Below the pieces are notes generated by a model. The model did not search any database and was not told where the DNA came from. It was given only the letters and a program-made list of their open reading frames with translations. From Methanotrichaceae archaeon (lineage in GTDB: Archaea; Halobacteriota; Methanosarcinia; Methanotrichales; Methanotrichaceae): a stretch of 64,000 bases of DNA. Position numbers and translations under genes: made by a program. Of this stretch, positions 35,186 through 59,130 are shown piece after piece (position 1 is the first letter of the stretch; every line of letters begins with the position of its first letter). The stretch lies in the NCBI GenBank assembly GCA_963803145.1, contig CAWDLW010000018.1, positions 97,383 through 161,382 on the forward strand. Direction: 5' to 3'.

Positions 35186-36271
35186 ATGCAGTTGGTGATC
35201 AACACATATGGATCATATCTCAGGAAGAGCGGAAACTGTTTTTTAGTAAAGAAAGAGGATAAAAGCTTCGAGGTGGCGGTCGGCAAAGTCAACAGCATAT
35301 TGATTACCACTGCGGCGTACATAACAACAGATGCAATAAAGCTGGCAGTTGACAATAACATAGACATAGTTTTTCTTGATGCTCATGGAGACCCTTATGG
35401 GAGGGTGTGGCATCCCAAGCTCGGAAGCACCAACCTGATCAGGAGAATGCAGCTTGAGATCTATGATACATCTGAAGGATTGAATCTGGCAAAGGAATGG
35501 GGAACCAAGAAGCTGAAAAATCAGATAGACCTTCTGAGCAGGCTCAAAAAGGCTAGGGAAGAACAAAGAGACGAGATCGAGAATTACATCCAGGAGATGG
35601 AGCACTCCAAAGAGCAGATGCAGAAGCTTAGAGGCAACATCGAGGCGAGGAGGCAGGACATCCTGGGCCTGGAGGGCAATGCATCGAGGGCCTACTTCGA
35701 GGCCATCTCCTCAATCATGCCTGAGCGGTACAAGTTTCATGGCCGGAGCAGAAACCCTGCGAAGGATGAGTTCAACGCTCTGCTGAACTACGGCTACGGC
35801 ATCCTCTACTCTTTAGTCGAAAAAGCCTGCATCATCGCTGGCCTTGATCCATATGTCGGATTTCTTCACACAGACAGCTACAACAAAAAGTCGCTGGTCT
35901 TCGACATCATAGAGATGTTCAGGATCTATGTGGATGAGACCGTTGTTTATCTTTTCACAAGAAGGATGGTGAAGGAGGAATACTTCGAGAAGCTGGAGCA
36001 GGGCCTCGGACTCAGCAAGGAGGGAAAGGCAGTTTTGATCGAGGCCATCAACAAAGCTCTGGATGAGCCGATTGAGTACCGGGGAAGAAACATAAAGAGA
36101 CGGAATACCATCCAGATGGAGTGCCACAGGATAGCCAACAATCTTATCAGGCCCAACCAGGAGCTTCCTGAGGATTTCGATCTTGAGATCTCCGAAGATT
36201 TATTGACTGACAGGCCAGAGCCCAAAGGGAACGAGAGCGGGAAAGGTGATAGAGGATGCTCGTCTGGGTGA
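35186..36271 (+). CDS. cas1: CRISPR-associated Cas1
   Basis: LGLEGNASRAYF, NALLNYGYGILY, GLDPYVGFLH and SLVFDIIEMFR motifs. Confidence 0.97.
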   Translation: MQLVINTYGSYLRKSGNCFLVKKEDKSFEVAVGKVNSILITTAAYITTDAIKLAVDNNIDIVFLDAHGDPYGRVWHPKLGSTNLIRRMQLEIYDTSEGLNLAKEWGTKKLKNQIDLLSRLKKAREEQRDEIENYIQEMEHSKEQMQKLRGNIEARRQDILGLEGNASRAYFEAISSIMPERYKFHGRSRNPAKDEFNALLNYGYGILYSLVEKACIIAGLDPYVGFLHTDSYNKKSLVFDIIEMFRIYVDETVVYLFTRRMVKEEYFEKLEQGLGLSKEGKAVLIEAINKALDEPIEYRGRNIKRRNTIQMECHRIANNLIRPNQELPEDFDLEISEDLLTDRPEPKGNESGKGDRGCSSG

Positions 36272-36543
36272 TCTACGACATATCGGAGAACAGGATAAGA
36301 AGCCGCGTGGCGAAGATCTGCAAGGGCTACGGCCTGTTCCGTGTCCAGAAGAGCGCTTTCCTTGGAGACCTGAACAAGAACGAGGCCGATTCCCTTACCC
36401 TGGAGTGCGAAGCATCCATAAAAGAGTCTGATTCTGTCTATGTCTTTCCCATGTGTGAGGATTGCTTCGGCAAGATTAAGCTGATCGGCGCAGGGTTTGA
36501 TAGAGAGCTGGTGAGCGGAATGACGATCACGAAGGTTTTCTGA
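36256..36543 (+). CDS. cas2: CRISPR-associated Cas2
   Basis: VIYDISENRIRSRVAKICKGYGLFRVQKSAF. Confidence 0.96.
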   Translation: MLVWVIYDISENRIRSRVAKICKGYGLFRVQKSAFLGDLNKNEADSLTLECEASIKESDSVYVFPMCEDCFGKIKLIGAGFDRELVSGMTITKVF

Positions 36544-36556
36544 GCGGTGGGCGAGA

Positions 36557-37201
36557 ATGGAAGCAGATGCCAAAGAACCGGAGACTAAGCTGGAACCGGA
36601 GCCTGAGCCGGTGGCGGAATCTGAGGTATTCGTTACGGTTTCAGATGCTTTGGAATACTTATTCTGCCCCAGGTTCATTTTCTTCATGCACTGCCTTAGA
36701 ATTGCTCAGAGAGAAGAGCGCAGATACAAAGTCCTGAAGGGCAGAGAGCTTCATGAGAGCCGAGAGAAGGTAAACCGGGATTATGTAAGAAAGAGGCTCA
36801 ACTGCATCAGGAAAGATATCTCTGTTTATCTCACCTCAAAGAGCCTGCACCTCAAGGGAGAGGTCGATGAAGTTCTTTTCTTAGAAGATGGGACGGCTGC
36901 GCCGATCGACTACAAATACGCCGAGTTCAAGGAGACGCTCTACAGGACGCACAAGTATCAGGCGGCCCTTTATGCCCTGCTGATCATGAGCCACTATGGA
37001 GTCGATGTGAAGCGAGGCTTTGTGTGCTATACCAGGAGCAACCACCATGTGGAGGAGATAACCTTCAGCCAAAAGGATTTTGAACGTGCACGATTAATGG
37101 TGGCCGAGATATTAGCCATAATACAGAGAGGGTACTATCCTGAGGGGACGAAGCAGAGGGCGAGGTGCGTGGATTGCACGTATAGGAATATTTGTGTTTG
37201 A
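36557..37201 (+). CDS. cas4: CRISPR-associated Cas4
   Basis: YLFCPR, GEVDEV..PIDYK, QAALYA and C-terminal C..C.Y...C motifs. Confidence 0.95.
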   Translation: MEADAKEPETKLEPEPEPVAESEVFVTVSDALEYLFCPRFIFFMHCLRIAQREERRYKVLKGRELHESREKVNRDYVRKRLNCIRKDISVYLTSKSLHLKGEVDEVLFLEDGTAAPIDYKYAEFKETLYRTHKYQAALYALLIMSHYGVDVKRGFVCYTRSNHHVEEITFSQKDFERARLMVAEILAIIQRGYYPEGTKQRARCVDCTYRNICV

Positions 37202-37274
37202 TTGATTTGAGGAGATCCAAGGTGAGCATGTACGGAAATGCCTATATCCCTTGTAGCGAAAATAAAGAGATAGA

Positions 37275-37388
37275 TAGGAGAATAATTTCCCTTGTAACAA
37301 GGATTGAAACAGTATTAAGGCAGTATGCTGCAGCTCAATTGGTTTCGCCTTTTCTGAAAATTGATTCCATCATAACAAGGATGAAGTC
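37275..37388 (+). CRISPR. Degenerate mini-array (repeat-spacer-repeat), crRNA-like regulatory RNA candidate
   Basis: Pseudo-repeat 37275-37310 ends AACAAGGATTGAAAC. Spacer is 37311-37352. Second pseudo-repeat 37353-37388 contains ATTCCATCATAACAAGGAT. Confidence 0.8.
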
Positions 37389-37415
37389 GATTAGAGGTTT
37401 GTTGCATTTAATCAT

Positions 37416-37442
37416 GGAAAGTTTTAAGTATTAAGGCGGTAT
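37416..37442 (+). promoter_or_regulatory. cas8b operon promoter (BRE GGAAAG + TATA TTTTAAGT) overlapping the mini-array spacer target
   Basis: About 45 bp upstream of the cas8b TTG start; 37427-37442 matches spacer 37311-37326 at 15 of 16 positions. Confidence 0.75.
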
Positions 37443-37466
37443 AATCTACACTCTGGTGGTGTCTAA

Positions 37467-39344
37467 TTGATTGAAGCGGTAAGCAAAATCGGTGACTATG
37501 TCCTTCAAAAAAATAGCGGTGGCGGAGATTCACTTTCCACATATATAGAAAATCCCAATAGCAACGGAAAATATAAATCAGCGTTGATAATTTTACTAAA
37601 AGAGAACAATGGGACGTATTCTTTTAGCCGTGTAGTGCTCGATGAATTTAAAAGTGATTTTAGTCTATATTTATACAAAAAAGGCGCTCCGAATGGCACC
37701 GATGCGACACCTACTAGTAAATTAGCAGGCAATTTAGAGAAGACCTTCCAGAACAGGTTCTTAAAATGGTTCGAGAATTATGATAGCTATGACATATCTA
37801 ATGAAGAGAAAGATGCCCTTAAAAAGATGAATACGGCAATCAGTGATCAAAAAGATAGAATATTGGCAGAACTACAAGAAAAGTACTCTCAAAAAGATCC
37901 TAAAAATAACGCTATCATCACATTGGGATTTGAAAAAAATGAGAATTATTCTTATCTCAATGAGTGTCCGATTTTCAAGAAGATCTTGCTTCGAATGGGC
38001 AAGGACAAGTATTTTCTCAAGAAATCTCAAGGTGAGTCAATAGGAAAAGAGGCTGCTTGTTCAGTTTGCAAAATGACAAAAGATGAGGTCTACGGCTTCG
38101 CAATTCCCTGGACATTCCACACTTTTGATAAGCCCGGATTTATTGCAGGAGGGTTCAATGTTAGTGAATCCTGGAAGAACACTCCGGTTTGCTTTGACTG
38201 CGCCACTCGCTTGGAGGTGGGCAAGAAGTTCATCGAAGAACGACTCGATTTTGGCTTTTACGGCTTCAGATATTTGCTCGTGCCAAAGCTGGCGAAAGGT
38301 GGCGATTTTCAAGATGTTCTGAGCATCTTGGGCGGAAAGGATCAAAAAAGGAAGCTAAAAATAAACAAAGAAATTAGGAGCAACATAACTTCAGATGAAG
38401 AGGAGATTCTCGACCTCGTCAAAGATAAAAAAGACTTTATCAGCAACAGCCTGATGTTTTATAAAAAGGAACAATCATCATACAGAATCTTGCTTCTCAT
38501 CGAGGAAATTCTGCCATCTCGTCTGAAAGCCCTTTTCGATACCAAAGACAAAGTGGACGAGAGGTTTAAGACCTATAACGATCTACTCTTGAATGAATCG
38601 CAGAAAGAGAAGAACCATCTCGAATTCAATTTTGGTGTCCTGAGGAGATTCTTCCCGCAAGAGTCCAAGAATAGAACATTTGATAAAATTTTCTTAGAGA
38701 TAGTCAATAAGATCTTTGTTGGAGATCAAATTGATTATTATCTATTGATAGATTTTATAATGAGAAGAGCTAGAGAAGCGTTCATCGAAGGCTACCCCAC
38801 AAATATTGCCACATTGAATGGCTTCCTGTTATTGCATTACCTAAGAGAGCTTAATCTTTTCAGAGATTCAAAGGAGGATATGAAAGAAATGGATGATAAG
38901 GGAAGTGGAATGAGATCTATCGAAAATCTTGAAGGTCTCCAGATTGAGGAAAAAGTCGAAAGATTCTTTGAGGCTAATCAGTCGTTCTTTACGAGCGAAT
39001 CAAAGAAAGCAACATTCCTGGAAGGAGTTCTCGCTCAAAATCTGCTCAATATTCAGTGGACGGACAAAAAGGCTACGCCATTCCGCACCAAATTGCATGG
39101 CTTGAAAATGAATGAAGCGCTCATCAAAAGACTTCTCCCAGATATCCAGAACAAGCTGGAGGAATATGGGAAGAATTACTACCGAGATTTGGAATCAATC
39201 ATTGCATATCACTTTGTCTTGGCGGGAGTCAATTGGAAAGAAGCGGATGATGAGCTAAGCTTTTATTTTGTTCTGGGTATGGATATGCACAGACTGTTCA
39301 AGAATGCAAAAGAGGATGAAGAAAAAATCGGTGGGGAGGCATAA
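37467..39344 (+). CDS. cas8b: Type I-B Cas8b (Csh1-like)
   Basis: CSVC..FHTFDKPGFIAGGF..PVCFDC motifs and C-terminal FYFVLGM; sits before cas7. Confidence 0.9.
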   Translation: MIEAVSKIGDYVLQKNSGGGDSLSTYIENPNSNGKYKSALIILLKENNGTYSFSRVVLDEFKSDFSLYLYKKGAPNGTDATPTSKLAGNLEKTFQNRFLKWFENYDSYDISNEEKDALKKMNTAISDQKDRILAELQEKYSQKDPKNNAIITLGFEKNENYSYLNECPIFKKILLRMGKDKYFLKKSQGESIGKEAACSVCKMTKDEVYGFAIPWTFHTFDKPGFIAGGFNVSESWKNTPVCFDCATRLEVGKKFIEERLDFGFYGFRYLLVPKLAKGGDFQDVLSILGGKDQKRKLKINKEIRSNITSDEEEILDLVKDKKDFISNSLMFYKKEQSSYRILLLIEEILPSRLKALFDTKDKVDERFKTYNDLLLNESQKEKNHLEFNFGVLRRFFPQESKNRTFDKIFLEIVNKIFVGDQIDYYLLIDFIMRRAREAFIEGYPTNIATLNGFLLLHYLRELNLFRDSKEDMKEMDDKGSGMRSIENLEGLQIEEKVERFFEANQSFFTSESKKATFLEGVLAQNLLNIQWTDKKATPFRTKLHGLKMNEALIKRLLPDIQNKLEEYGKNYYRDLESIIAYHFVLAGVNWKEADDELSFYFVLGMDMHRLFKNAKEDEEKIGGEA

Positions 39345-39346
39345 AA

Positions 39347-40267
39347 ATGAGTGAAGGAGTTAAGAACAGATCAGAGATTCTTTTTCTCTACGACATAAGA
39401 GACGGAAATCCAAACGGTGATCCTTTGGACGAGAACAAACCGCGTATAGATGAAGAGACGGGCATTAACCTCGTAACTGATGTCAGGTTGAAAAGGACTA
39501 TTAGGGACTATCTTCACAATTTTAAGGGTCAAGAGATCTTTGTAAGAGAAGTGGTCTACGACCAAGAGAAAGGTCTTATCCAAGATGGAAAGATGAGAGC
39601 TGGCAACTTTGGCAATGATCCCAAGAAAATTTTGAGTGAGTGTATCGATATCCGTCTCTTTGGCGGAGTAATTCCCCTAAAAGAAGACTCTATAACTTAC
39701 ACCGGCCCAGTGCAGTTCAAGATGGGCCGATCGCTTCATCGCGTTACCATGAAGCACATCAAGGGCACGGGAGCCTTTGCTTCAAAAGAGGGCTCAAAGC
39801 AGGCGACCTTCCGTGAAGAAGATATCTTGCCTTATTCGCTCATTCTCTTTTACGGAATCATAAACGAGAACGCGGCCAAGCATACTCATCTTACTGAAGA
39901 TGACGTGAAGCTCTTGCTGGAAGGAACTTGGAATGGAACCAAGAGCCTGATCTCAAGAACCAAGGCAGGCCAGGTCCCGAGGCTTCTTCTCAAAGTCAAT
40001 TACAGCAAGGAAAACTATCACATTGGTGATCTGGATAAAATGCTCAAGCTGACAACAGAGATGCCGCACGAAAATATCCGAGGAACCGAGGACTTCAAGA
40101 TCGATATCTCGAATCTGATTGGCAAACTAGCAGCCGAGAAGAACTCTATAAGGGACATCGAGATCTGCGCCGATGATCGAATGACATTCTGCAAAGACGG
40201 CGCAAGTTTCTCTGTTGACGGGCTGGCAGCGGCAACTGGCATTGTCGTGAAGACGATAGCGTTCTGA
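39347..40267 (+). CDS. cas7: Type I-B Cas7 (Csh2)
   Basis: NPNGDPLDENKPRID, TDVRLKRTIRDY, DIRLFG and TGPVQF motifs. Confidence 0.95.
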   Translation: MSEGVKNRSEILFLYDIRDGNPNGDPLDENKPRIDEETGINLVTDVRLKRTIRDYLHNFKGQEIFVREVVYDQEKGLIQDGKMRAGNFGNDPKKILSECIDIRLFGGVIPLKEDSITYTGPVQFKMGRSLHRVTMKHIKGTGAFASKEGSKQATFREEDILPYSLILFYGIINENAAKHTHLTEDDVKLLLEGTWNGTKSLISRTKAGQVPRLLLKVNYSKENYHIGDLDKMLKLTTEMPHENIRGTEDFKIDISNLIGKLAAEKNSIRDIEICADDRMTFCKDGASFSVDGLAAATGIVVKTIAF

Positions 40268-40274
40268 GGTCCAG

Positions 40275-40988
40275 ATGGCGGAGCGAGTAATAGTATTCGA
40301 TGTGTGGGGAGACTATGCCCACTTCAGGAAGAATTACTCTACGAGCTCACCCCTCACTTATTCCTTCCCTCCCCGCACAGCCCTTTCGGGATTGATTGGA
40401 GCCATTGCGGGCCTTGATAAAGCGGATTATTTCAAGCAATTCTTTAGAGATGGTGCAAAGATAGGCTGCAAAATCATGAAGCCTGTTAAAAAGGTGAGGA
40501 TAGGCGAGAACCTGATCGATACCAAAAGCGCAGTGAAGATGCATCTGATCAAGAACCGGACACAGATCCGATTTGAGTTTGTGAAAGATCCTAAGTACAG
40601 GATTTATTTCTCGCACTCAGACGAGCAATTTTATAAAAAGCTAAAAGACCTGCTCTCAAGTCATCAATCAGTTTACACACCATGTCTAGGGCTAAGCCAA
40701 CTCATCTGCAACTTCGAGTTCGTGGGCGAATTCGAGCTTAAGGCGTCTGGAGAAGACGTCCAGATCATTGATAGCGTTGTGCCCGGAAAATTCATTCAGG
40801 AACCGGTGTTCGAGGAAGGCAAAGAGTACTTCTCCGAGGTGATGCCGTGCGAGATGGGCGAGGCAAGAGAAGTAACCGATTATCGAGAGATTCTGTTTGA
40901 GCGGAATGGAGATGGCATCAAAGCAAAGGCCAAAGAGTTGTGGGAGTTGAATAATGGCGAACGAATCGAGCGAATCGTCTTCCTTTAG
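40275..40988 (+). CDS. cas5: Type I-B Cas5
   Basis: FDVWGDYAHFRK..TSSPLTYSFPPRTALSGLIGAIAG. Confidence 0.95.
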   Translation: MAERVIVFDVWGDYAHFRKNYSTSSPLTYSFPPRTALSGLIGAIAGLDKADYFKQFFRDGAKIGCKIMKPVKKVRIGENLIDTKSAVKMHLIKNRTQIRFEFVKDPKYRIYFSHSDEQFYKKLKDLLSSHQSVYTPCLGLSQLICNFEFVGEFELKASGEDVQIIDSVVPGKFIQEPVFEEGKEYFSEVMPCEMGEAREVTDYREILFERNGDGIKAKAKELWELNNGERIERIVFL

Positions 40989-43404
40989 GTTAAAATCCCA
41001 TCCGGATAAACTCCTGGTGGACCATCTTCATCGAGTCGGAGAGTTAAGCAAAAAAACCGTAGCGGATAAGTCTCTGAACATAGATGATGCAGACCTTTTG
41101 AAAGATGCGGCATACCTTATAGGAATCACTCATGATCTCGGAAAGGCCACACGTTTTTTCCAGGATTACATCACGGAGACGGATGAAAAGAAGAAAAAAT
41201 CGCTCAAAGCTAAGGATACCACTCATCATGGTCTGCTTTCGGCATTTTTTACCTATGCAGTGATTAAGGAATATTTGAGCCAGACGGAACGGAAAGGCGG
41301 ACTCGCTGAGTATTTGCCCATCTTATCTTTCCTGGCCGTGAAGAGACACCACGGAAATCTGCAAAATGCAATGGATGAAATCAAGGATACAGACACTGAT
41401 AAAGAAAAAATCTTGAAGATCGCCGATGAGCAGATTAAATCGATTGACAGAGCTGAGATGGGTGAAATTCTGTCGCATCTCCTGTCCCTAGAAAACATCA
41501 ACTTAAAAATCGATGTGGATAATGTCACCAATTATATCCTAAAGGATTCCATAAAAGATATTCGCAGAAAGGAGAAATCCTTAGTTAGAGGCTTGAGCGA
41601 AAAAAGCGATCTTTACCCGTATTTTATATCTCAGTTTCTTTACTCCGCTCTCTTAGATGCTGACAAGATGGATGCGGGATTAGACGGAATCAATCTGGAC
41701 CGCTTGGACCTTTCATCGAAGCTCGTGGATGAATACAGAGATTCGAAAGGCTTCTCATCCAACAAGAACAATATCAACAGCCTCAGGAATCAGATCTACG
41801 AAGAAGCTGTGGAGAGGATCAAAAACTGGAACTTGGACGATAAGATCCTCTCCCTGAATGTTCCCACAGGCACGGGCAAGACTCTAACGGCTCTTTCCAT
41901 ATCGCTGAAGCTGAGAGATCGATTGGAGAACGAGCGAAAAATAAAGCCCAGAATTATCTATGCACTACCGTTCCTGAGCATAATTGATCAAAATTATGGA
42001 GTCTTTGAGGATGTTGTATCTCCAAATGGAGAAGATCCCAAGGATTCCAGACTCCTACTCAAACACCACCATCTTGCGGATGTGAAATACGAGATTGAAG
42101 ATAACGAGTTCGATGTGGATAAGAGCAAACTGCTCCTGGAGGGCTGGAATGCGGAGATAATAGTAACCACCTTCTGGCAGCTCTTTAATACGCTCTTCTC
42201 AAACAGAAACAAGCAGCTTCGCAAGTTCAACAAGCTTGCAAACTCCATTATCATTCTAGACGAAGTCCAGGCCGTACCTCACCAATACTGGCAGTTGATA
42301 CACGACGCACTAAATCTGCTTCGCGAGAAGTTCAATAGCTACGTTGTATTCATGACTGCAACCCAGCCGCTCATCTTCGAAGAGGACAAAGGAGAAATTA
42401 AGGAGATAGCCCAAAGAAAAGAGGATTACTTCCGGGGCTTGAATAGAATTGAGCTAATACCAAGAATCGATAGGACACTAACATTGGACGAATTCAAAGC
42501 CTTGCTGAATAATGATTTAGCCCAAAAGAAAGAAAAGGATTTCCTGATCGTTCTCAACACGATAGGCTCGGCTCAAGAGATTTACAGATTCATTCAAGGC
42601 TTGCAGCTGGAGAACACTAAAAAGATGTTCCTCTCTACAAATGTAATACCTAAAGTGAGGCTGAACCGGATAAATGAGATAAGAGAATCCAATGAATCGC
42701 CAAGAAAGAGGAGAGTCATTATCAGTACCCAGCTAATCGAAGCTGGTGTGGATATTGATGCGGATGTAGTTTATAGGGACTTTGCTCCCTTGGATTCCAT
42801 CAACCAGGTGGCGGGCAGATGTAATAGAAACTCTGCCAAAGATGACAAAGGCACGGTATCGATTTTCATTTTGAAGGATGATAAAAAGGAATTTTATAAA
42901 TATATCTATGATCCCTTCTTGATTAGCAAGACTCTGGCCATTCTGAGGCCAAATGAGCCAATCAAAGAATCAGAATTCTTGGAACTAAATAATAGATATT
43001 TCAAAGCCGTGAAGAGGGGAATGGGCGAGAAGGAGTCGAAGGATAATTTAGATTGCATTGCAGGTTTAGCATTTAAGGATTTGAGTGAGAACTTCAAGCT
43101 GATCGAACAAGATTATTCCAAAGTTGATGTTTTTGTAGAAATAGATGATAAAGCTTCAGAGATCTGGAAGCAATACCAAGATATGCAGATGGAGAAAAAT
43201 AACATCGAGAGAACGAAAAAATATCTGAGAATAAAGAAAGATATCAGCGAGTATGTAATTTCTGTTCCTGAGAAATATGCACATTCCCTGGTCGACGAAA
43301 ATTCCGATATCGGTTACATCTCAAGGCTTGAGCTTCCCAATTACTATGATACTGAGACTGGTTTCATGCGTGCAGGCGCCGGTGAAGGCTCTATGATTTT
43401 CTGA
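40954..43404 (+). CDS. cas3: Cas3 HD nuclease-helicase
   Basis: HL..V, HDLGK, PTGTGKT, LDEVQ, MTAT, STQLIEAGVDID and QVAGRCNR motifs. Confidence 0.96.
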   Translation: MANESSESSSFRLKSHPDKLLVDHLHRVGELSKKTVADKSLNIDDADLLKDAAYLIGITHDLGKATRFFQDYITETDEKKKKSLKAKDTTHHGLLSAFFTYAVIKEYLSQTERKGGLAEYLPILSFLAVKRHHGNLQNAMDEIKDTDTDKEKILKIADEQIKSIDRAEMGEILSHLLSLENINLKIDVDNVTNYILKDSIKDIRRKEKSLVRGLSEKSDLYPYFISQFLYSALLDADKMDAGLDGINLDRLDLSSKLVDEYRDSKGFSSNKNNINSLRNQIYEEAVERIKNWNLDDKILSLNVPTGTGKTLTALSISLKLRDRLENERKIKPRIIYALPFLSIIDQNYGVFEDVVSPNGEDPKDSRLLLKHHHLADVKYEIEDNEFDVDKSKLLLEGWNAEIIVTTFWQLFNTLFSNRNKQLRKFNKLANSIIILDEVQAVPHQYWQLIHDALNLLREKFNSYVVFMTATQPLIFEEDKGEIKEIAQRKEDYFRGLNRIELIPRIDRTLTLDEFKALLNNDLAQKKEKDFLIVLNTIGSAQEIYRFIQGLQLENTKKMFLSTNVIPKVRLNRINEIRESNESPRKRRVIISTQLIEAGVDIDADVVYRDFAPLDSINQVAGRCNRNSAKDDKGTVSIFILKDDKKEFYKYIYDPFLISKTLAILRPNEPIKESEFLELNNRYFKAVKRGMGEKESKDNLDCIAGLAFKDLSENFKLIEQDYSKVDVFVEIDDKASEIWKQYQDMQMEKNNIERTKKYLRIKKDISEYVISVPEKYAHSLVDENSDIGYISRLELPNYYDTETGFMRAGAGEGSMIF

Positions 43405-43415
43405 CCAGGAGGTTC

Positions 43416-44108
43416 ATGAAACTTAAGCTACTTCGTCTCACCCTCCAATCCGCCACTCCAATGCACGGCGACGCCTCGAAGCTTCGCGGCTTCTTCGCCA
43501 CCAGATTCAACGAATATGCCCTATTGCATCAGCACACAGCGGATAAGCTGATCTACAAGTACCCTCTAATCCAATACAAGATGCTTCAGGGCAAGCCCCT
43601 GGTGCTGGGGATCGATGAGGGCGCCGAGGTTCTAAAGGAGATCTACGACAAATTCGATGAGATAAAGATCGGTGAGAGCGAATATACAATCATGGAGCGC
43701 GGCGTGACCCTCAAATCAGAGGAGTTCGGCTGCTCCCAGGAGATCCTCAGCTACAGGTTTGTGACGCCCTGGCTTGCACTGAGCCAGGAGAATTACCCGA
43801 AATATTTGGAGGCATCCTGGGAGGAGAGAAAGGATCTGCTGAGGAGAATCCTGGTAGGAAACCTACTCTCAGCCTCTAAGGGACTAGGATACGTGGCCAC
43901 AGAGCAGATCAAGTTAGAGCTTGGAAGAATCCATGAGGAGATCTGCATGCTCAAAGGGACGAAGGTTACAGGAATACGAGGGGAGTTCACAACGAACTTT
44001 GCGGTACCGGACTTTATGGGTCTGGGGAAGTCTGTCTCAAGAGGCTTTGGAGCTGTTATACGGTTGAATAAAGAAGCGAGTGCTGTTTTTACGCCAAAAG
44101 ATCATTAG
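43416..44108 (+). CDS. cas6: Cas6 (Cas6b-like) endoribonuclease, copy 1
   Basis: LRGFFA..LLHQH..YKYPLIQYK and the G-rich loop GLGKSVSRGFG. Confidence 0.92.
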   Translation: MKLKLLRLTLQSATPMHGDASKLRGFFATRFNEYALLHQHTADKLIYKYPLIQYKMLQGKPLVLGIDEGAEVLKEIYDKFDEIKIGESEYTIMERGVTLKSEEFGCSQEILSYRFVTPWLALSQENYPKYLEASWEERKDLLRRILVGNLLSASKGLGYVATEQIKLELGRIHEEICMLKGTKVTGIRGEFTTNFAVPDFMGLGKSVSRGFGAVIRLNKEASAVFTPKDH

Positions 44109-44230
44109 CTCGGCCACTCGGCAGGAATGAATTTATAAGAGATTTGATAAATTCCACTCATGCCGGAAGGAGGGTGAGATAAGGCCGGTTTGAGACCCAG
44201 AAACAGGGAAAAGGACGAAAATTCGGCGCT
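44109..44230 (+). promoter_or_regulatory. CRISPR leader 1
   Basis: Lies between cas6 and the first repeat; TTTATAAG TATA near 44132; near-identical to 57276-57397. Confidence 0.85.
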
Positions 44231-47200
44231 CATCGAGAGCTAATTCCACGAAAACAAGGATTGAAACACAGTCCATCCTTCAAATCCATTCAGCTCGGAT
44301 AGGCATCGAGAGCTAATTCCACGAAAACAAGGATTGAAACTAGAAAGATGGGATACCAGAATTGCACAAACTGTAATCATCGAGAGCTAATTCCACGAAA
44401 ACAAGGATTGAAACCGCTTCATCACTTTATAAACGTTTTGGTATATTCCACATCGAGAGCTAATTCCACGAAAACAAGGATTGAAACGCGAGCTTACGGG
44501 GCCATATATCTTGCGCAGATATACATCGAGAGCTAATTCCACGAAAACAAGGATTGAAACTTCAGATGCTCATATCCATGCAGCCAACTATATCAGCATC
44601 GAGAGCTAATTCCACGAAAACAAGGATTGAAACAAGTCCATAGGCAAGAGGCCTGAAGAGCCTGAGGCATCGAGAGCTAATTCCACGAAAACAAGGATTG
44701 AAACTAAGCTATACGGCCCGAATCCCACGCTCGATAATCATCGAGAGCTAATTCCACGAAAACAAGGATTGAAACTGAGGTGTTTATGAGAGGCTATCCA
44801 CGAGGTCCCCTCATCGAGAGCTAATTCCACGAAAACAAGGATTGAAACCTACAAAGCTTCTGATAGCCGCAGGTCAGATGATAGGCCATCGAGAGCTAAT
44901 TCCACGAAAACAAGGATTGAAACACAAGCATGTGAGAGGGGGAAATTAAGGTTCTGCGATCATCGAGAGCTAATTCCACGAAAACAAGGATTGAAACACA
45001 TTGGCTCGATCACAGGGCATCTTGATCACCTTGCATCGAGAGCTAATTCCACGAAAACAAGGATTGAAACTAGTTATCTGAAGTGGGTGTACCGCGAAAG
45101 TAATACTCATCGAGAGCTAATTCCACGAAAACAAGGATTGAAACTAGATCCTGCCTATAAGAGGATAGATAGCAATGGAACATCGAGAGCTAATTCCACG
45201 AAAACAAGGATTGAAACTCCAAAATTCCCTGCCTGACATGAAAGTCAAATGCACATCGAGAGCTAATTCCACGAAAACAAGGATTGAAACTGTAGAAATA
45301 TGAAAATCTGAGGGAGTGGCATGGGAGCATCGAGAGCTAATTCCACGAAAACAAGGATTGAAACGATAAAGCATCAATGCTGCTAACAGCAGCTGTGTAT
45401 GCATCGAGAGCTAATTCCACGAAAACAAGGATTGAAACTTCAATGCAGCTGTCCAAGGATAATTGAATCCCCCATCATCGAGAGCTAATTCCACGAAAAC
45501 AAGGATTGAAACTAGGGTCCATCGGCATAGCGGCATCAAACGATTTCCATCGAGAGCTAATTCCACGAAAACAAGGATTGAAACATGATATGCGCTGCAT
45601 TGATGGCCTTCAATAGGAAGCATCGAGAGCTAATTCCACGAAAACAAGGATTGAAACCCAGTTATGTTGATCCCAATACGACAACTTATAATGCATCGAG
45701 AGCTAATTCCACGAAAACAAGGATTGAAACTAATAGGTAGGATTCAATCGAACGGTTTTTCCGCATCGAGAGCTAATTCCACGAAAACAAGGATTGAAAC
45801 ACTATTATACTCGCAAAGGCCAACATGCTTATCTTTCCATCGAGAGCTAATTCCACGAAAACAAGGATTGAAACATATTGTAGCTGGTAGTAATCCTCCG
45901 GCATGGCGTTCATCGAGAGCTAATTCCACGAAAACAAGGATTGAAACGAGGATGTGAATTGAGATGGAGGCAGTTATATTTCTCATCGAGAGCTAATTCC
46001 ACGAAAACAAGGATTGAAACCAATAGTCGAAAACGATATAATAATATTTGATATAGACATCGAGAGCTAATTCCACGAAAACAAGGATTGAAACATGGGG
46101 GTAGGAAAACGGAGAACGACTCAAAATATCCATCGAGAGCTAATTCCACGAAAACAAGGATTGAAACTGAACCTGGCGCTTTCGAGCGGTCCTATTAGCC
46201 TCAGTCATCGAGAGCTAATTCCACGAAAACAAGGATTGAAACTGCTATATAAACCGCCAAGCACCACAATGTATCCTTCATCGAGAGCTAATTCCACGAA
46301 AACAAGGATTGAAACGCTCTCTTATCATGATTCCACGTCCCCACCTTAAACATCGAGAGCTAATTCCACGAAAACAAGGATTGAAACAAGGTGATCATCA
46401 AAGATGTATCAGAGCATCTATAAGCATCGAGAGCTAATTCCACGAAAACAAGGATTGAAACTGAGAATCCTGAAGACATAGAAACTGATATTCGACATCG
46501 AGAGCTAATTCCACGAAAACAAGGATTGAAACTTGGTACTATCAGCAAATCTCCATGTCTGTACATCTTATTCATCGAGAGCTAATTCCACGAAAACAAG
46601 GATTGAAACCTCTTACAAATCCATCGGAGATTGAAACTGGTGTATTCATCGAGAGCTAATTCCACGAAAACAAGGATTGAAACTCGACTTCCTCTAGGCG
46701 ATCCATCAAATCGCATAAGCATCGAGAGCTAATTCCACGAAAACAAGGATTGAAACTAGAAATGGCCTCTTTGCCCAAAAGGCGTGCTAGCCATCGAGAG
46801 CTAATTCCACGAAAACAAGGATTGAAACGTTCCCATATACAACGAATAATATAGAAGTGAAAATCATCGAGAGCTAATTCCACGAAAACAAGGATTGAAA
46901 CGTGAACGTGATCGCGTGATGCCTCGCACCCTTGGCCTTGACATCGAGAGCTAATTCCACGAAAACAAGGATTGAAACTCGGTTTAAGTCCGCTCGCCTG
47001 CCGGGCGGAACGAAACATCGAGAGCTAATTCCACGAAAACAAGGATTGAAACTATATCTGTAGAAACTGAACTTGATGTGAACATTGCCGCACATCGAGA
47101 GCTAATTCCACGAAAACAAGGATTGAAACAGGGATCAAATACTTCTTTAGCTGCTCCGCTCGAAGGGATCGAGAGCTACTTCCACGAAAACAAGGATTGA

Positions 47201-47497
47201 AACCACATGAACCTTGCAGATATCGTAGATGTGACTTGGTCCGAGTGCAACTTTCAGGAAAACAAGAATTGAAATCCAAGAGTGCCTACGGCTGAGGAAT
47301 GGACGATAGCCAGATCCGTGAGCAAATTCCATGAAAACAAGGATTGAAACATTACGTTCCCATTCTTTACCCCTATCCTTGCCATATGTTTGAGAGCTGC
47401 TTCCAGGAAAACAAGGATTGAAACTAATCTAGAGGTGCGGATTGAGTCACGCCGATGAGAAGATTGCGAGCTACTTCCACAAAAGAGGGAGTAAAAC
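44231..47497 (+). CRISPR. CRISPR array 1: 41 intact 37-bp repeats plus 4 degenerate trailer repeats
   Basis: Repeat CATCGAGAGCTAATTCCACGAAAACAAGGATTGAAAC occurs 40 times, with one variant at 47167. Degenerate copies at 47239, 47314, 47388 and 47461. The ATTGAAAC 3' end fixes the + orientation. Counted by hand. Confidence 0.97.
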
Positions 47498-48807: not shown

Positions 48808-48839
48808 ATCCGAGAGCTAATTCCACGAAAACAAGGATT
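48808..48839 (+). repeat. Solitary CRISPR repeat (3' truncated)
   Basis: ATCCGAGAGCTAATTCCACGAAAACAAGGATT, lacking the final GAAAC. Confidence 0.88.
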
Positions 48840-48956
48840 CCAATTGATATCTTTACTATGGCGCCCATCAGTGTTTCGACGTTGGAACCAGCACGACGAT
48901 AACTGAATATATTCCTATGTACATAATTTTACCGTAAGGCTCTAACCGTCTTCCTT

Positions 48957-51945: not shown

Positions 51946-51982
51946 ATCCGAGAGCTACTTCCATGAAAACAAGGATTGAAAC
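51946..51982 (+). repeat. Solitary full-length CRISPR repeat
   Basis: ATCCGAGAGCTACTTCCATGAAAACAAGGATTGAAAC (37 bp). Confidence 0.9.
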
Positions 51983-52570: not shown

Positions 52571-52603
52571 GTCCAAGAGCTAATTTCATGAAAACAATGA
52601 TTG
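52571..52603 (+). repeat. Solitary degenerate CRISPR repeat
   Basis: GTCCAAGAGCTAATTTCATGAAAACAATGATTG. Confidence 0.75.
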
Positions 52604-52632
52604 TGGCCTTAAACAAACCATCGTGGTTCATC

Positions 52633-54227
52633 AACCTTATGGCCTATGTTTCAAGAACTTTCCCCCGAAGAGGGGTTAGGGGCAGCCCGCGCGGCGACTG
52701 AGCGCGCTAGGAAAACCATTAGTTTCCCATGAAAAACCTTCATCAATTAAAAGAAATGGGGTGCTATCCACCCCCTACCGAATGTCTATTCTTCAAGTGA
52801 TAAAAGGCGTCTACGATAGCAGCCACTCCATCCTTTAATCGGTCATCTTTTGATAGATAGAGGAGGTCCCTTTTGACTGGTTTTGATGCAGCTGTAGTGC
52901 AGTTGTTCTCTTGATATAGCTCTTGATTGATCAGCAGATGATAAATTATTGTGATTAATTTCCGTGCTAAAGCAGTGATCGCTACATTGTAACTCTTTCT
53001 GGCCGATAATCTATGGAAGTACCTTGAGAGCTTGTTCTTGTTATTTCTCATCTTAGCTATCACTTGAGCTATCTCGACAAGCATAGTTCTGAGACTCTTG
53101 GACCCCTGTTTCGTAATACCACATTGCTTCTTTTTCCCTGCAGATTCGTGTAGTCCAGGAACCAATCCACACCATTTAGCGATTTGTTCTGGGGTTTGGA
53201 AATCGTGATAGTCACCGATTTCTGCCAAGATGGTCGACCCTGATCTAAAACTTATTCCTGGAATTGACATAACTATTGCCAGATCTTTAGCGCTTTTCTG
53301 AAATTTGCTAAGCACTTCAAGACTTGTTTTATCTATCTTCTTTTTCAGAAGATCAAGGAGCTCTAGATTATCCTTAACAAGCATTCTCGAAGTATCATCA
53401 AGACCGTTTGCAAGAGCCGCTTTGATGACGTCTCGCTTTTTCTTGATCTTCTTTGAAGTGATGCTGTCCAGGATCGAGTCTGCATCCTTGCCTTCAACCA
53501 GGCCGTCCAAGATAATCCTGCCTGATTTACCAAAGATGTCTGAAATACAAGAACTCAGCTTTATGCCGCAAAGTGCTAGATACTTATGAACTCTGTTTCT
53601 AAGTTGAGTTTGAGTCTTTATATATCCTGATCTGGCACGGGTCATCATTCTGAGGGCTCTATCCTCATTGGAAAAGACTCTTGATCTCTTGATTTTGCCA
53701 TCCAAGCAGTTACCTGCAATCCTCTTAGCGTCATGAGAATCCGACTTATCCCCTACAAGTCCTTTGACCATCCATGGATTTGCTACAATTGTATCAATAG
53801 AGGGACTCAGGCAATCGTATACTGGAAACCAGTAAACACCTGTAGCTTCGAATGCTACTTGCTCGCAATTATTGGCTATGAGCCAATTCCTGAATCTCTC
53901 TAGCTCAGAACGAGTCGTGCCAAACTGTTCCTGGATTTCAGTCCCATCTGCATCTTCGATCGTGGCTACTATGAGATCTTTATGGACATCTGCTCCGCAA
54001 ACTCTATCTCTTCGTTTGCCCATATATGTCGCTATCCTGATATGGGCAGATGATTAAGATTAAACCCTCATAAGGGGCAATTTCCCATACGCGTTCAACG
54101 ACGCAGCCCCGTATTCGCGGGATTATTGGCCAGTTTTAGCCGCGAGATCATGATCTCAAAATTAAAGCTGCCTTCACTGCCCATATCAGACTAAACATAG
54201 TTGGCCATGAATGTGAGGTTTTTCATC
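52633..54227 (-). mobile_element. IS110-family element
   Basis: TTCATC core at 52627-32 and 54222-27; imperfect subterminal inverted matches (ATGGCC..TATGTTT / AAACATAG..GGCCAT); about 200-bp non-coding end upstream of the transposase. Boundaries are inferred. Confidence 0.7.
52764..54023 (-). CDS. IS110 transposase (DEDD RuvC-like)
   Basis: CGADVHKD, FEATGVYW, KSDSHDA, SIPGIS, WCGLVP..HESAG and ALARKL motifs. Confidence 0.95.
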   Translation of the reverse strand: MGKRRDRVCGADVHKDLIVATIEDADGTEIQEQFGTTRSELERFRNWLIANNCEQVAFEATGVYWFPVYDCLSPSIDTIVANPWMVKGLVGDKSDSHDAKRIAGNCLDGKIKRSRVFSNEDRALRMMTRARSGYIKTQTQLRNRVHKYLALCGIKLSSCISDIFGKSGRIILDGLVEGKDADSILDSITSKKIKKKRDVIKAALANGLDDTSRMLVKDNLELLDLLKKKIDKTSLEVLSKFQKSAKDLAIVMSIPGISFRSGSTILAEIGDYHDFQTPEQIAKWCGLVPGLHESAGKKKQCGITKQGSKSLRTMLVEIAQVIAKMRNNKNKLSRYFHRLSARKSYNVAITALARKLITIIYHLLINQELYQENNCTTAASKPVKRDLLYLSKDDRLKDGVAAIVDAFYHLKNRHSVGGG

Positions 54228-56364: not shown

Positions 56365-56572
56365 ATACGCAATAATCATCGAAAAGGGCGAAGGAAATTA
56401 TTCTGCATATGTCCCCGACCTCCCTGGCGTGGTTGCGGCAGCTGAAACCGAAGAAGAAACAATAGACCTGATGAGAGCGGCTATAGAATTTCACATTCAG
56501 GGACTGAAGGAAGATAAGCTGCCCATACCAGAACCCACAACTACTGCAAAATGCGTTGAAGTTGTTGTATGA
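56357..56572 (+). CDS. HicB family antitoxin
   Basis: YAIIIEKGEGNYSAYVPDLPGVVAAAET. Confidence 0.9.
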   Translation: MAKYAIIIEKGEGNYSAYVPDLPGVVAAAETEEETIDLMRAAIEFHIQGLKEDKLPIPEPTTTAKCVEVVV

Positions 56573-56582
56573 ATGCAGATGT

Positions 56583-57397: not shown

Positions 57398-59130
57398 GAT
57401 CGAGAGCTACTTCCACGAAAACAAGGATTGAAACATTTTTTCGAGGAGGATTGAATAAATATGATCTATCGATCGAGAGCTACTTCCACGAAAACAAGGA
57501 TTGAAACGAATTGAAATTATAAAGAGAGATTCCTATACATGTCAGGATCGAGAGCTACTTCCACGAAAACAAGGATTGAAACTTCTTTTACAATAGTGGG
57601 ATAATTATTTAACGGATTGAAGATCGAGAGCTACTTCCACGAAAACAAGGATTGAAACACTGCATTTGCGCCTTCATCTGCACCCATCCCGGCAGGATCG
57701 AGAGCTACTTCCACGAAAACAAGGATTGAAACTGGTTCGCGTTGAGGTTCCGATAAAGATAGCCCATGATCGAGAGCTACTTCCACGAAAACAAGGATTG
57801 AAACTCAAATCTCAGAACTTCATTCGCTATCTGATCGGGCGATCGAGAGCTACTTCCACGAAAACAAGGATTGAAACCCGATATGAAGAATTCTATGGCC
57901 AAGACTGCTGAAGATCGAGAGCTACTTCCACGAAAACAAGGATTGAAACACTATTGTCGGCCTTCTTGATCACCAGACCCTTTAAGATCGAGAGCTACTT
58001 CCACGAAAACAAGGATTGAAACCTAACCCTTCCAGTGGGATTGGGCTCTGCTTCTCTCGGATCGAGAGCTACTTCCACGAAAACAAGGATTGAAACTCTA
58101 CCGTGATCAGCCCGATTGATTCTAGCCGCTTGAGGATCGAGAGCTACTTCCACGAAAACAAGGATTGAAACCCGTTATCTGGTGGGATGACGAGCGATTG
58201 CTCCATGGATCGAGAGCTACTTCCACGAAAACAAGGATTGAAACATTTTCTACCAGCTTGATACCTCAAAATGGTTCTATGATCGAGAGCTACTTCCACG
58301 AAAACAAGGATTGAAACTACAAATCCGGTGAACCCGTATATCTCGAAGAATGCCCCTTGATCGAGAGCTACTTCCACGAAAACAAGGATTGAAACCAGTC
58401 TTCCGGTATAGGTTCAGATAGCTCGATGGTGATCGAGAGCTACTTCCACGAAAACAAGGATTGAAACTTGTGGTCTCAAACAGATGAGTATCAAGAGCGT
58501 ATTGATCGAGAGCTACTTCCACGAAAACAAGGATTGAAACTAGACCGTTGATAATGTTCCCGAATATGTATGGCTGTGGATCGAGAGCTACTTCCACGAA
58601 AACAAGGATTGAAACGGAACAGATATACAATGGTAATAGGGAGATGTCTGAGATCGAGAGCTACTTCCACGAAAACAAGGATTGAAACAGCTGAATCCTC
58701 CAAAATCTCGTCTATCGACACTTTGATCGAGAGCTACTTCCACGAAAACAAGGATTGAAACTGATAATCCAGATCCGGAGCAATATGCTTAATCTCTCGA
58801 AGATCGAGAGCTACTTCCACGAAAACAAGGATTGAAACGAAATTCGCTGGAAAGGGGTTGCGTCACGATTTTAAGATCGAGAGCTACTTCCACGAAAACA
58901 AGGATTGAAACACATTGGCTCGATCACAGGGCATCTTGATCACCTTGATCGAGAGCTACTTCCACGAAAACAAGGATTGAAACTCATTTGATTGTCATCC
59001 CAGGAGCCGTAAATCTTTGTCGATCGAGAGCTACTTCCACGAAAACAAGGATTGAAACTACCTTTAAGCTTATCTCCCAATCGGTGAGGGATTGATCGAG
59101 AGCTACTTCCACGAAAACAAGGATTGAAAC
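57398..59130 (+). CRISPR. CRISPR array 2: 24 repeats, 23 spacers
   Basis: Repeat GATCGAGAGCTACTTCCACGAAAACAAGGATTGAAAC (2 differences from array 1). A possible truncated 25th repeat (GATCG) lies near 59172. Counted by hand. Confidence 0.97.

Follow-up and report, generated by a model that had tools for sequence, protein, structure and literature searches.

The DNA analysed here (the window) is a stretch of 64,000 nucleotides from a methanogen of the Methanothrix family (Methanotrichaceae) with a genome of 4.1 Mb, and it carries a complete type I-B CRISPR-Cas locus. The genes are arranged in the order cas1-2-4-8-7-5-3-6, and the identities of cas1, cas2, cas4, cas8b, cas7, cas5, cas3 and cas6b were confirmed by profile matches. 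The locus has the features of a type I-B system of the Cas8b1 (TM1802) kind, namely a TM1802-family cas8b, cas7, cas5, cas3, cas6b, cas1, cas2 and cas4, and repeats ending in ATTGAAAC. The I-B effector genes are all there, along with cas6b and two arrays that together hold 66 true spacers. In the window the start codon of cas8b is TTG. A degenerate repeat-spacer-repeat unit, psiR1-psiS-psiR2 (37274-37388), sits between cas4 and cas8b (Table 1).

Table 1. Features of the type I-B locus and of the unit between cas4 and cas8b (positions in the window).
Feature	Position	Strand	Remarks
cas4	36557..37201	+	last gene of adaptation module cas1-cas2-cas4; TIGR00372, E 3.3e-41
Open frame, cas4 stop to cas8b start	37192-37434	+	ATG at 37228, 68 aa
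Possible mini-array promoter, GGAAAT then TATAT-containing box	37234..37249	+	inferred; ~25 nt before psiR1
psiR1, degenerate repeat	37274..37310	+	24/37 identity to array repeat
psiS, spacer-like segment	37311..37351	+	41 nt; nt 1-16 (37311-37326) are the guide portion
psiR2, degenerate repeat	37352..37388	+	22/37 identity overall; 5' part 18/29; last 8 nt 4/8
TATA-like box TTTTAAGT of presumed cas8b promoter	37422..37429	+	inferred by eye from sequence
TTA, presumed PAM	37424..37426	+	directly 5' of target
Target (protospacer-like) site	37427..37442	+	pairs with psiS nt 1-16 at 15/16 bases; position 12 differs
Shine-Dalgarno-like GGTGGTG of cas8b	37455..37461	+	read from sequence; 6 nt before TTG start
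cas8b (Cas8b1/TM1802 type)	37467..39344	+	first effector-operon gene; TIGR02556 E 7.4e-83, TIGR02591 E 9.4e-48
cas7	39347-40267	+	profile match; within 39347..44108 block
cas5	40275-40988	+	profile match
cas3	40954-43404	+	profile match
cas6b	43416-44108	+	Pfam Cas6b_N + Cas6b_C
CRISPR array 1	44231..47424	+	44 repeats of 37 nt; its crRNAs would compete with the mini-array RNA
Second cas6b	56556-57275		precedes array 2
CRISPR array 2	57398..59130	+	24 repeats

The unit had been described as a repeat at 37275-37310, a 42-nt spacer and a second repeat at 37353-37388. The unit is present and its first repeat does keep the exact repeat end, but the register had to be shifted: since the repeat unit is 37 nt and not 36, psiR1 begins one base earlier (37274), the spacer is 41 nt long and psiR2 starts at 37352. 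The starts of the two repeats are 78 nt apart on the plus strand, in the same orientation as both arrays. The last 8 nt of psiR1 (37303-37310, ATTGAAAC) are identical to the array repeat at all eight positions and constitute the predicted 5' tag of a crRNA; I-B systems with 37-nt repeats are known to give crRNAs with the 5' tag AUUGAAAC (PMC3479195). Copies of a 15-mer of the repeat, AACAAGGATTGAAAC, with no more than 2 mismatches number 70 in the window, against 0.14 expected; 68 of them are in the two arrays, one is in psiR1 and one in an orphan repeat at 51946-51982. psiR2 taken by itself is near chance, as each shuffle of the window contains 5-9 windows with at least 21/37 identity, and it is identified by its register, 78 nt after psiR1, and its conservation in two relatives rather than by likeness alone. 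Its core, TTCC..ATAACAAGGAT, is invariant in all three loci that carry the unit. In creR genes, psiR1 is defined as conserving the bases of the 5'-handle and psiR2 the 3'-handle part (10.1101/2023.03.10.532045, section 8). The same division is found here: psiR1 keeps the 5'-handle, while psiR2 keeps the 5' part of the repeat, including the predicted Cas6b site (...AACAAGG, with the cut before AT), and not the 8-nt tag.

The putative promoter block ahead of psiR1 is partly conserved in both relatives, and a similar arrangement, GGAATG followed by AATTTATAAG, is seen in the leader of array 1 at 44124-44139. A sigma-70-type promoter scan gave 0 matches, a model that does not apply to archaea. Special structure in the predicted mini-array RNA was considered and rejected: the RNA is no more structured than its shuffles (z-scores 1.27, 0.40 and -1.34), like an ordinary crRNA of array 1. 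Other solitary or degenerate repeats lie at 48808-48844, 51946-51982 and 52571-52607 in the window. The one at 51946-51982 was examined as a second regulator and rejected, since the genome holds no partner for the 16 nt downstream of it.

The first 16 nt of psiS match the site at 37427-37442, as had been proposed, at 15 of 16 positions and with a TTA immediately 5' of the match. The target ends 24 nt before the start codon of cas8b and overlaps a TATA-like box; this putative promoter element, T(T/C/A)TTAAGT preceded by AAAG or AAAT, is conserved in the three loci. Besides the spacer itself, the target is the only site on either strand of the whole genome without a mismatch at the 14 paired positions, against 0.042 such sites expected from base composition, and the next-best genome site has one mismatch and a TCG flank. 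When the first 16 nt of each of the 66 array spacers were compared with the interval 37389-37466, the best alignments had 4-7 mismatches each; among 20,000 shuffles of that interval, none reached 0 mismatches and one reached 1. Pairing is limited to the PAM-proximal 16 nt of psiS and is lost beyond nt 16, likewise in both relatives.

Orthologous loci were expected to keep the match and to show covariation of spacer and promoter, and this is what was found. Two other Methanotrichaceae species, G049 and G072, carry the same unit as the window's own genome, G000. In G049 the guide is the same as in G000 and the target has a mismatch at position 6. In G072, guide and target are both changed at position 4 (A to G) and position 11 (C to G), compensatory changes that retain the pairing; both have T at position 12, and the sole mismatch is at position 6. 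Only the first 16 nt of psiS are conserved in G072, the 3' part being unrelated. As G000 and G049 are 83% identical across the region, the independent evidence amounts to about two lineages. Across nt 1-16, the unmatched bases in the three carriers are exclusively at position 6 or 12, in agreement with the claim that type I Cascade skips every sixth base. In the I-B Cascade of T. maritima, a mismatch at position 6 is without effect on binding and the seed comprises positions 1-5 and 7 (PMC13199841). The comparison was extended to nine spacer-target pairs (3 sense and 6 antisense mini-arrays) from loci of the same Cas8b family; in these, the first 16 nt contain 17 mismatches, of which 11 are at position 6 or 12 (binomial P 7e-7 against an expectation of 2/16, a value that overstates the case because the nine loci are kin).

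All nine of these targets, which were located without using the flank, have TTA on their 5' side. Among I-B1 systems whose repeats end in AAC, the three in Table 1 of PMC13199841 have the PAMs YYD, TTN/TNA and TTA; PAMs of such systems are also covered in PMC6926293. TTA, a PAM defined by experiment for Cas8b1-type I-B systems with this repeat end, is a plausible PAM here. Searches with the array spacers found no protospacer from which to derive the PAM. None of the window's 66 spacers had a full match in the genome of the window (the closest, on C23, was 28/36 with the 3' 26 nt identical), and 891 spacers from 20 array stretches of 18 relatives gave a single 19-nt match when compared with that same genome. 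No spacer was common to different genomes. Array 1 gave only repeat-driven matches to arrays in 105 genomes of the family and, against plasmids, only a CRISPR array in a Runella plasmid. Neither array matched the phage collection, and two of the 66 spacers, searched as 24-mers, had 0 matches in IMG/VR.

The distribution of the unit was determined by a gapped pattern scan, which detected it in 3 of 105 genomes of the family and order (G000, G049 and G072). Among the distinct cas4-cas8b junctions, 10 of 22 are only 11-16 nt long and are without such an element, and in a Cas8b tree the three carriers do not form one clade. Being rare and patchy among relatives, the circuit must be dispensable. 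The same gapped pattern in metagenome contigs returned, among the matches listed, true arrays of other organisms; 120 loci (L053-L172) were examined, and on strands with at most 3 repeat ends no guide was found, nor any downstream match except one repeated array spacer. The mini-array signature was absent from IMG/VR and no viral mimic was seen there. One metagenomic homologue, P0006, known as a called protein only, has N where the others have K over target positions 1-2. Judged from the protein, its locus has a seed mismatch, because target position 2 is not G while the guide encodes G.

The anatomy of the unit, its unique target, its covariation with the promoter and the TTA flank argue that the mini-CRISPR is probably a creR-type gene, whose RNA would turn the organism's own I-B Cascade into a repressor of the cas8b-cas7-cas5-cas3-cas6b operon. 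Such repression of its own operon by Cascade had been put forward in the original prediction, and every consequence of it that is testable in sequence was borne out. Transcription of the unit would start at a promoter-like box of its own or continue into it from cas4. Cas6b would cut psiR1 8 nt from its end and psiR2 at the corresponding position, to give an RNA with the standard 5' tag followed by the guide, on which Cas8b, Cas7 and Cas5 may assemble as on a crRNA. The complex would recognise the TTA and pair through guide bases 1-5, 7-11 and 13-16 with the target, so that the bound site would fall within or just past the TATA-like box. A pairing of 16 nt is presumably too short to license Cas3; the complex would stay in place and block TBP, TFB and RNA polymerase. 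That partial PAM-proximal pairing can repress without cleavage agrees with work on the I-B system of Parageobacillus thermoglucosidasius, where complementarity of at most 26 nt, including 11 and 15 nt, represses without Cas3 cleavage (PMC10551041). Since the repressor would be built from the operon's own products and would compete for them with the 66 array crRNAs, repression should weaken whenever Cascade is in short supply, is titrated by crRNAs or has been inactivated. A role as a sensor of crRNA load or of anti-CRISPR attack may be suggested by analogy, carried over from the work on CreR in other organisms (10.1101/2023.03.10.532045).

Most likely, the unit extends a known mechanism and is not a new one (Liu et al. 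2023; Shmakov et al. 2023); mechanism and architecture have been described as widespread, including in archaeal I-B loci (10.1101/2023.03.10.532045; PMC10120712). As in CreR, a degenerate repeat-spacer-repeat lies within the cas locus, some 15 bases at the PAM-proximal end match a site that is flanked by a PAM and lies at the effector-operon promoter (here with TTA as presumed PAM and a putative promoter) and a partner toxin is not evident (10.1101/2023.03.10.532045). The cases described there as tested are Salmonella I-E, Cas12a V-A and the Haloarcula I-B CreA, whereas the present unit comes from Methanotrichaceae and from a type I-B system of the Cas8b1 kind; it is located between cas4 and cas8b, is known from sequence and is spanned by an open frame. 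The mini-arrays of Shmakov et al., reported in about 17% of archaeal I-B loci, likewise have two repeats and a spacer partly matching a cas promoter, with a cognate PAM and adjacent seed; those of I-B, however, are mostly described around cas6 and as targeting the cas6 promoter (PMC10120712). The main text of that study names no methanogen, and its supplement of 1,499 mini-arrays may include the loci described here. In the literature on Methanothrix and Methanosaeta no description of such an element was found; the lists of Shmakov et al. and Figures S6 and S7 of Liu et al. may bear on priority.

Similarity also extends to CreA of the Haloarcula hispanica I-B system, a crRNA-like RNA of limited complementarity with which Cascade represses without cleavage (10.1101/2023.03.10.532045, 10.1101/2024.01.05.574328, PMC12737573). 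CreA also represses cas8, as proposed here for cas8b; unlike the present unit, for which there is no conserved toxin candidate, it is paired with a toxin RNA gene, creT, in a module between cas6 and cas8. The P. thermoglucosidasius system shares the Cas8b1-type I-B effector and the repeat end AAC, and its PAM is TTA, the presumed PAM here (PMC10551041), but it is artificial and bacterial and uses fully matching short spacers, whereas here a natural 41-nt spacer is predicted to pair over 16 nt. With tracr-L of Cas9, the unit has in common a natural guide-like RNA that makes the effector repress its own promoter; tracr-L belongs to type II, with a single protein and another RNA architecture (10.1101/2020.05.21.102756).

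The likeness to CreA raises the alternative that the unit is the antitoxin half of a CreTA-type addiction module. The Cascade site would then serve mainly to shut off a small toxin gene located in that intergenic region, and repression of cas8b would be a side effect. In Haloarcula hispanica, divergent promoters of creT and cas8 lie on either side of the CreA site and both are repressed (10.1101/2023.03.10.532045), CreT toxins have little sequence conservation (10.1101/2024.01.05.574328), and a 26-codon ORF does begin on the minus strand of the window 12 nt left of the target. This ORF has no counterpart in G049 or G072. The three loci share no ORF in which a strong ribosome site precedes repeated rare codons, the homologues do not keep the Arg-Arg-Ile codons that the window has in its plus frame, and downstream of the target site there is nothing but cas8b. 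A search beside the target revealed no small ORF or element except cas8b common to the three loci, a result with which a non-coding toxin is still compatible. On this evidence the toxin-antitoxin explanation is very unlikely.

In every locus, a frame without stops runs across the entire unit; it is unexplained by the CreR model. The main product of the region could be a small protein encoded by this frame, or the frame could serve as a translated bridge that keeps ribosomes on a read-through cas1-2-4 mRNA and couples them to cas8b, with the likeness to repeats being secondary. The frame is free of stops for 80, 91 and 97 codons in G000, G049 and G072, lengths reached by 14, 16 and 6 of 2000 dinucleotide shuffles respectively. 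Its start overlaps the stop codon of cas4. The frame closes with a TGA directly adjoining the TTG of cas8b in G049 and 5 nt short of the GTG in G072, whereas in the window it stops 32 nt before cas8b. A protein search found the frame called as a gene in 5 further metagenomic contigs, which are known as proteins only. Against a coding role, the substitutions between G000 and G049 are flat over the codon positions (12/8/13), with 7 synonymous and 20 non-synonymous codon changes; the peptide similarity between G000 and G072 is confined to the end of psiR1 with the seed and to the core of psiR2, and the product has no match in Pfam or NCBIfam. An ORF also fails to account for the exactness of the crRNA tag, for a unique target flanked by TTA, for the covariation and for the pattern of mismatches at positions 6 and 12. 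As the principal function of the unit, translation is very unlikely, though a translated frame can coexist with CreR-type repression.

An inert relic, either what remains of an array that decayed at its end or promoter sequence duplicated by chance, is highly improbable and already disfavoured: although solitary and degenerate repeats exist elsewhere in the window, the orphan at 51946 among them without a genome target, and most related loci are without the unit, a relic would not keep the 8-nt tag exactly, restrict mismatches to positions 6 and 12 or keep TTA at the target in every locus, nor would it retain 16 guide bases, compensatory changes included, when the remainder of the spacer has diverged fully.

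In sister loci the mini-array is antisense and is aimed at the promoter of a tRNA gene specific to the cas locus. This tRNA is of class II with the anticodon UAA (UAU in one locus), and its discriminator is G, as against A in the tRNA-Leu genes of the host. A tentative and rather speculative generalisation is that the cas4-cas8b junction is an exchangeable slot for a Cascade-guiding mini-CRISPR, either self-repressing and frame-embedded or antisense and tRNA-controlling. If true, one stretch of RNA would be either cut into a repressor or translated through, coupling cas8b to the upstream genes, and the tRNA would represent a cargo of a new kind repressed by Cascade, perhaps a tRNA toxin that causes mistranslation and guards the locus.

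Autorepression of the CreR type, as read at the cas8b promoter, leaves the understanding of the mechanism itself unchanged. The three loci provide a natural data set in which spacer and promoter have changed together and the mismatches of the carriers fall only at the unpaired sixth bases, and thereby give comparative support for a mechanism hitherto shown mainly by reporter assays in other hosts. Less expected are two neighbouring observations, a crRNA-like guide aimed at a tRNA gene and a mini-array crossed by an open frame. Methanothrix and its relatives are major producers of methane from acetate, and to our knowledge little is known about the control of CRISPR in them. If the CreR reading is true, the locus would extend RNA-guided autorepression of Cas to the Methanothrix group.

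A complete type I-B CRISPR-Cas locus lies on the + strand of the window, with two arrays of a 37-nt repeat that ends 3′ in ATTGAAAC. All 69 copies of this repeat end in the 4.13-Mb genome (45% G+C) fall inside the window. In I-B systems with 37-nt repeats, Cas6b-made crRNAs are described as carrying the 5′ tag AUUGAAAC (PMC3479195). The cas4–cas8b gap, 265 nt in length, holds two degenerate repeats (psiR1 and psiR2) with a spacer-like segment between them. The original prediction had placed a hidden mini-CRISPR here, and its coordinates were correct to within one base. The likeness of psiR2 to the array repeat is by itself near chance level; it was accepted as a repeat because of its register and conservation.

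Features of the type I-B locus and of the mini-array between cas4 and cas8b
Feature	Position in window	Strand	Remarks
cas1	35186-36271	+	
cas2	36256-36543	+	
cas4	36557-37201	+	
psiR1	37274-37310		degenerate repeat; 24/37 to array repeat; last 8 nt 8/8
Spacer-like segment	between psiR1 and psiR2		41 nt
psiR2	37352-37388		degenerate repeat; 22/37; 5′ part 18/29; last 8 nt 4/8
TATA-like box TTTTAAGT	37422-37429		conserved; overlapped by TTA and target site
cas8b	37467-39344	+	TTG start; TM1802 family
cas7, cas5, cas3	downstream of cas8b	+	
cas6b	43416-44108	+	
CRISPR array 1	44231-47424		44 repeats
Second cas6b	56556-57275		Cas6b_N and Cas6b_C; directly upstream of array 2
CRISPR array 2	57398-59130		24 repeats

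The repeat of array 2 differs from that of array 1 at two positions, the first base being G and not C and ..CTACTT.. replacing ..CTAATT... Solitary repeats are present between the arrays at 48808-48844 (31/37), 51946-51982 (32/37) and 52571-52607 (27/37), in surroundings that include a TPR protein, a YhcG-type nuclease gene and an IS110-family transposase (52764-54023). No partner exists in the genome for the sequence that follows the 51946 copy. These repeats look like an array disrupted by insertions. In the third spacer of array 1 (44415-44450), the 3′ 26 nt are identical to positions 77913-77938 of another contig of the same genome (C23), and the 5′ 10 nt match at 2/10. Two further spacers have weaker matches on C23, 14 kb away, and the matching region may be a mobile-element remnant.

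The first 16 nt of the spacer-like segment, the guide, match 37427-37442 upstream of cas8b with a sole mismatch at position 12, and TTA, the presumed PAM, is directly 5′ of the site. Over the 14 positions taken as paired (1–16 without 6 and 12), this is the only site on either strand of the genome with no mismatch, where 0.042 were expected. When the 66 real array spacers were compared with the 78-nt stretch around the site (37389-37466), the best had at least 4 mismatches, and none of 20,000 shuffles of the stretch reached zero. The mini-CRISPR and its match at the presumed cas8b promoter were confirmed, and the match is not a chance one.

A 411-nt query around the unit gave a full-length match only in one other Methanotrichaceae genome, G049 (83% identity); in a second, G072, the match extended through the mini-array at 71% identity. 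The same three carriers were returned when 105 genomes were searched with a unit-specific pattern. In G049 the guide is identical to that of the window, and only position 6 of the target is unmatched. Guide and target of G072 share G at 4, G at 11 and T at 12, which leaves position 6 as the sole mismatch. The psiR1 end and psiR2 core are invariant, while the remaining 25 nt of the G072 spacer are unrelated to those of the window. In none of the three loci does pairing extend beyond base 16. The spacer–target match, whose covariation had been proposed earlier as a check in orthologous loci, is kept in both relatives, and guide and target changed jointly in G072. Judged from these sequence comparisons, the tag, the guide of 16 nt, the core of psiR2 and the target have been under joint selection, a pattern that fits a Cascade-bound guide and not a relic.

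The unit is rare and patchy in distribution. Among 22 distinct cas4–cas8b junctions, 10 are of 11–16 nt, 3 carry the unit and 6 have a different mini-array on the opposite strand; other sequence fills the remaining 3. On a tree built from residues 1–260 of Cas8b, in which many forks are weakly supported, the three carriers do not group together as one clade, and the branch nearest to the window is without the unit. A 14-nt direct repeat, 86% identical, flanks the 265-nt gap (37194-37207 and 37459-37472). Its position is the point at which cas4 and cas8b join in relatives with 11–16-nt junctions, and it may be a trace of cassette insertion.

The antisense mini-arrays, which form an independent second set, occur in gaps of 554–716 nt at L013 (G050), L018 (G004), L023 (G021), L030 (G054), L048 and L051 (G039). 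Their spacers match, from nt 1 to 14–18, a site at a distance of a few hundred bases. TTA is 5′ of the target in all six, and in 9/9 when all pairs are considered; this flank played no part in locating the nine sites. The first 16 nt of the nine pairs contain 17 mismatches, of which 11 fall on position 6 or 12 (P = 7e-7, an upper bound on significance since the loci are kin).

At these antisense junctions the mini-array adjoins cas4 and its TTA-flanked target is further along the gap. In five of six (not L048) this target has a ATATATTA-like box on one side and, on the other, a class II tRNA gene (Rfam tRNA, 49–58 bits). Six of the 105 family genomes have the gene, each as a single copy, and in five of these it is between cas4 and cas8b. 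The sixth copy (G005) begins at a contig end, with its mini-array out of view; Cas8b and a CRISPR array are on the same contig. The cloverleaf is preserved through three compensatory pairs. Five copies have the anticodon UAA and one (G050) has UAU, and the discriminator base is G, as in the host tRNA-Ser; the host's long-arm tRNA-Leu genes have A. A further copy (78% identity) belongs to another family; its contig is short, and neither cas4 nor cas8b was found there. IMG/VR yielded no copy. The tRNA of these sister loci may be Cascade-repressed; the available text of the CreTA/CreR literature mentions no tRNA gene as such cargo. L036 (G034) and L051 are nearly identical over the first 260 Cas8b residues (branch lengths about 0.008). 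L051 has a 562-nt antisense mini-array and tRNA cassette and L036 just 113 nt with a TATAAAG box, which suggests recent cassette loss or gain. L048 is a 3.3-kb contig with a Methanotrichaceae-like cas4–cas8b junction (73% Cas8b identity); titled as a Verrucomicrobiota bin, it is probably mis-binned.

The three premises of the original prediction hold against published reports on seed, PAMs and short-guide repression. An unpaired sixth guide base agrees with purified T. maritima I-B Cascade, in which the seed comprises positions 1–5 and 7 and mismatching position 6 has no consequence (PMC13199841); its Cas8b and that of the window belong to the same TM1802 family. TTA is among I-B PAMs: for the three I-B1 systems with AAC at the repeat end, the PAMs are YYD, TTN/TNA and TTA (PMC13199841 Table 1; PMC6926293). 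Short pairing binds without cleavage in P. thermoglucosidasius (TTA PAM), where complementarity of up to 26 nt represses transcription and 11- and 15-nt guides are effective (PMC10551041). CreR is described by Liu et al. as a stand-alone creA-like mini-CRISPR with a target adjoining the effector promoter; they give the same psiR1/psiR2 asymmetry, and for Salmonella a 15-nt PAM-flanked match (10.1101/2023.03.10.532045). The present unit shares with this class the repeat asymmetry, the short PAM-proximal match and the conservation of spacer and target, next to a presumed PAM and a presumed promoter, and differs from published examples in host and in Cas8b variant context. About 17% of I-B loci in archaea are reported to contain mini-arrays, for the most part close to cas6 (Shmakov et al., PMC10120712), whereas this one is between cas4 and cas8b. 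No description of the element was found in the available Methanothrix/Methanosaeta literature, although supplementary mini-array lists might contain it.

A stop-free frame (37192-37434, +) begins at the cas4 stop, covers the whole unit and ends at or close to the start of cas8b. It is present in all three carriers (including L010 and L011) with 80, 91 and 97 codons, lengths attained by 14, 16 and 6 of 2000 shuffles, and gene callers predicted it in five further metagenomic contigs. Substitutions show no bias among codon positions, the peptide resembles that of G072 only within the RNA elements, and a protein-family profile search gave no family match. The frame could be a translated bridge coupling cas8b to a read-through mRNA, or the RNA could be of dual use. 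A metagenomic homologue, P0006, reads N-Y-K-G-C over the target where G049 reads K-Y-K-G-S. With N at the target, target position 2 cannot be G, and the guide still encodes G; judged by its protein only, this carrier would have a mismatch in the seed.

The unit is probably a CreR-type regulatory RNA gene, and the proposed RNA-guided cas autorepression is supported on the points that sequence can address, with TTA as a plausible PAM. Some 25 nt ahead of psiR1, GGAAAT with a TATAT box, which resembles the leader box of array 1, is on our reading a putative promoter. Transcription and Cas6b cleavage would yield an RNA starting at 37303, which Cas8b/7/5 would take up, and the complex would occupy TTA and the 16 nt at 37424-37442. 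The target site is 25 nt upstream of the cas8b start codon and 13 nt upstream of a Shine-Dalgarno-like GGTGGTG. The bound complex would stop transcription initiation of cas8b-cas7-cas5-cas3-cas6b, and Cas3 would not be licensed. By analogy with the CreR study (10.1101/2023.03.10.532045), repression would ease as free Cascade becomes scarce through crRNAs or anti-CRISPRs. This CreR reading leaves the stop-free frame unexplained, and the patchy distribution of the unit and the apparent seed mismatch of P0006 also sit less easily with it. The locus adds a new instance to a mechanism described before; the neighbouring tRNA and the open frame add to the interest of the locus.
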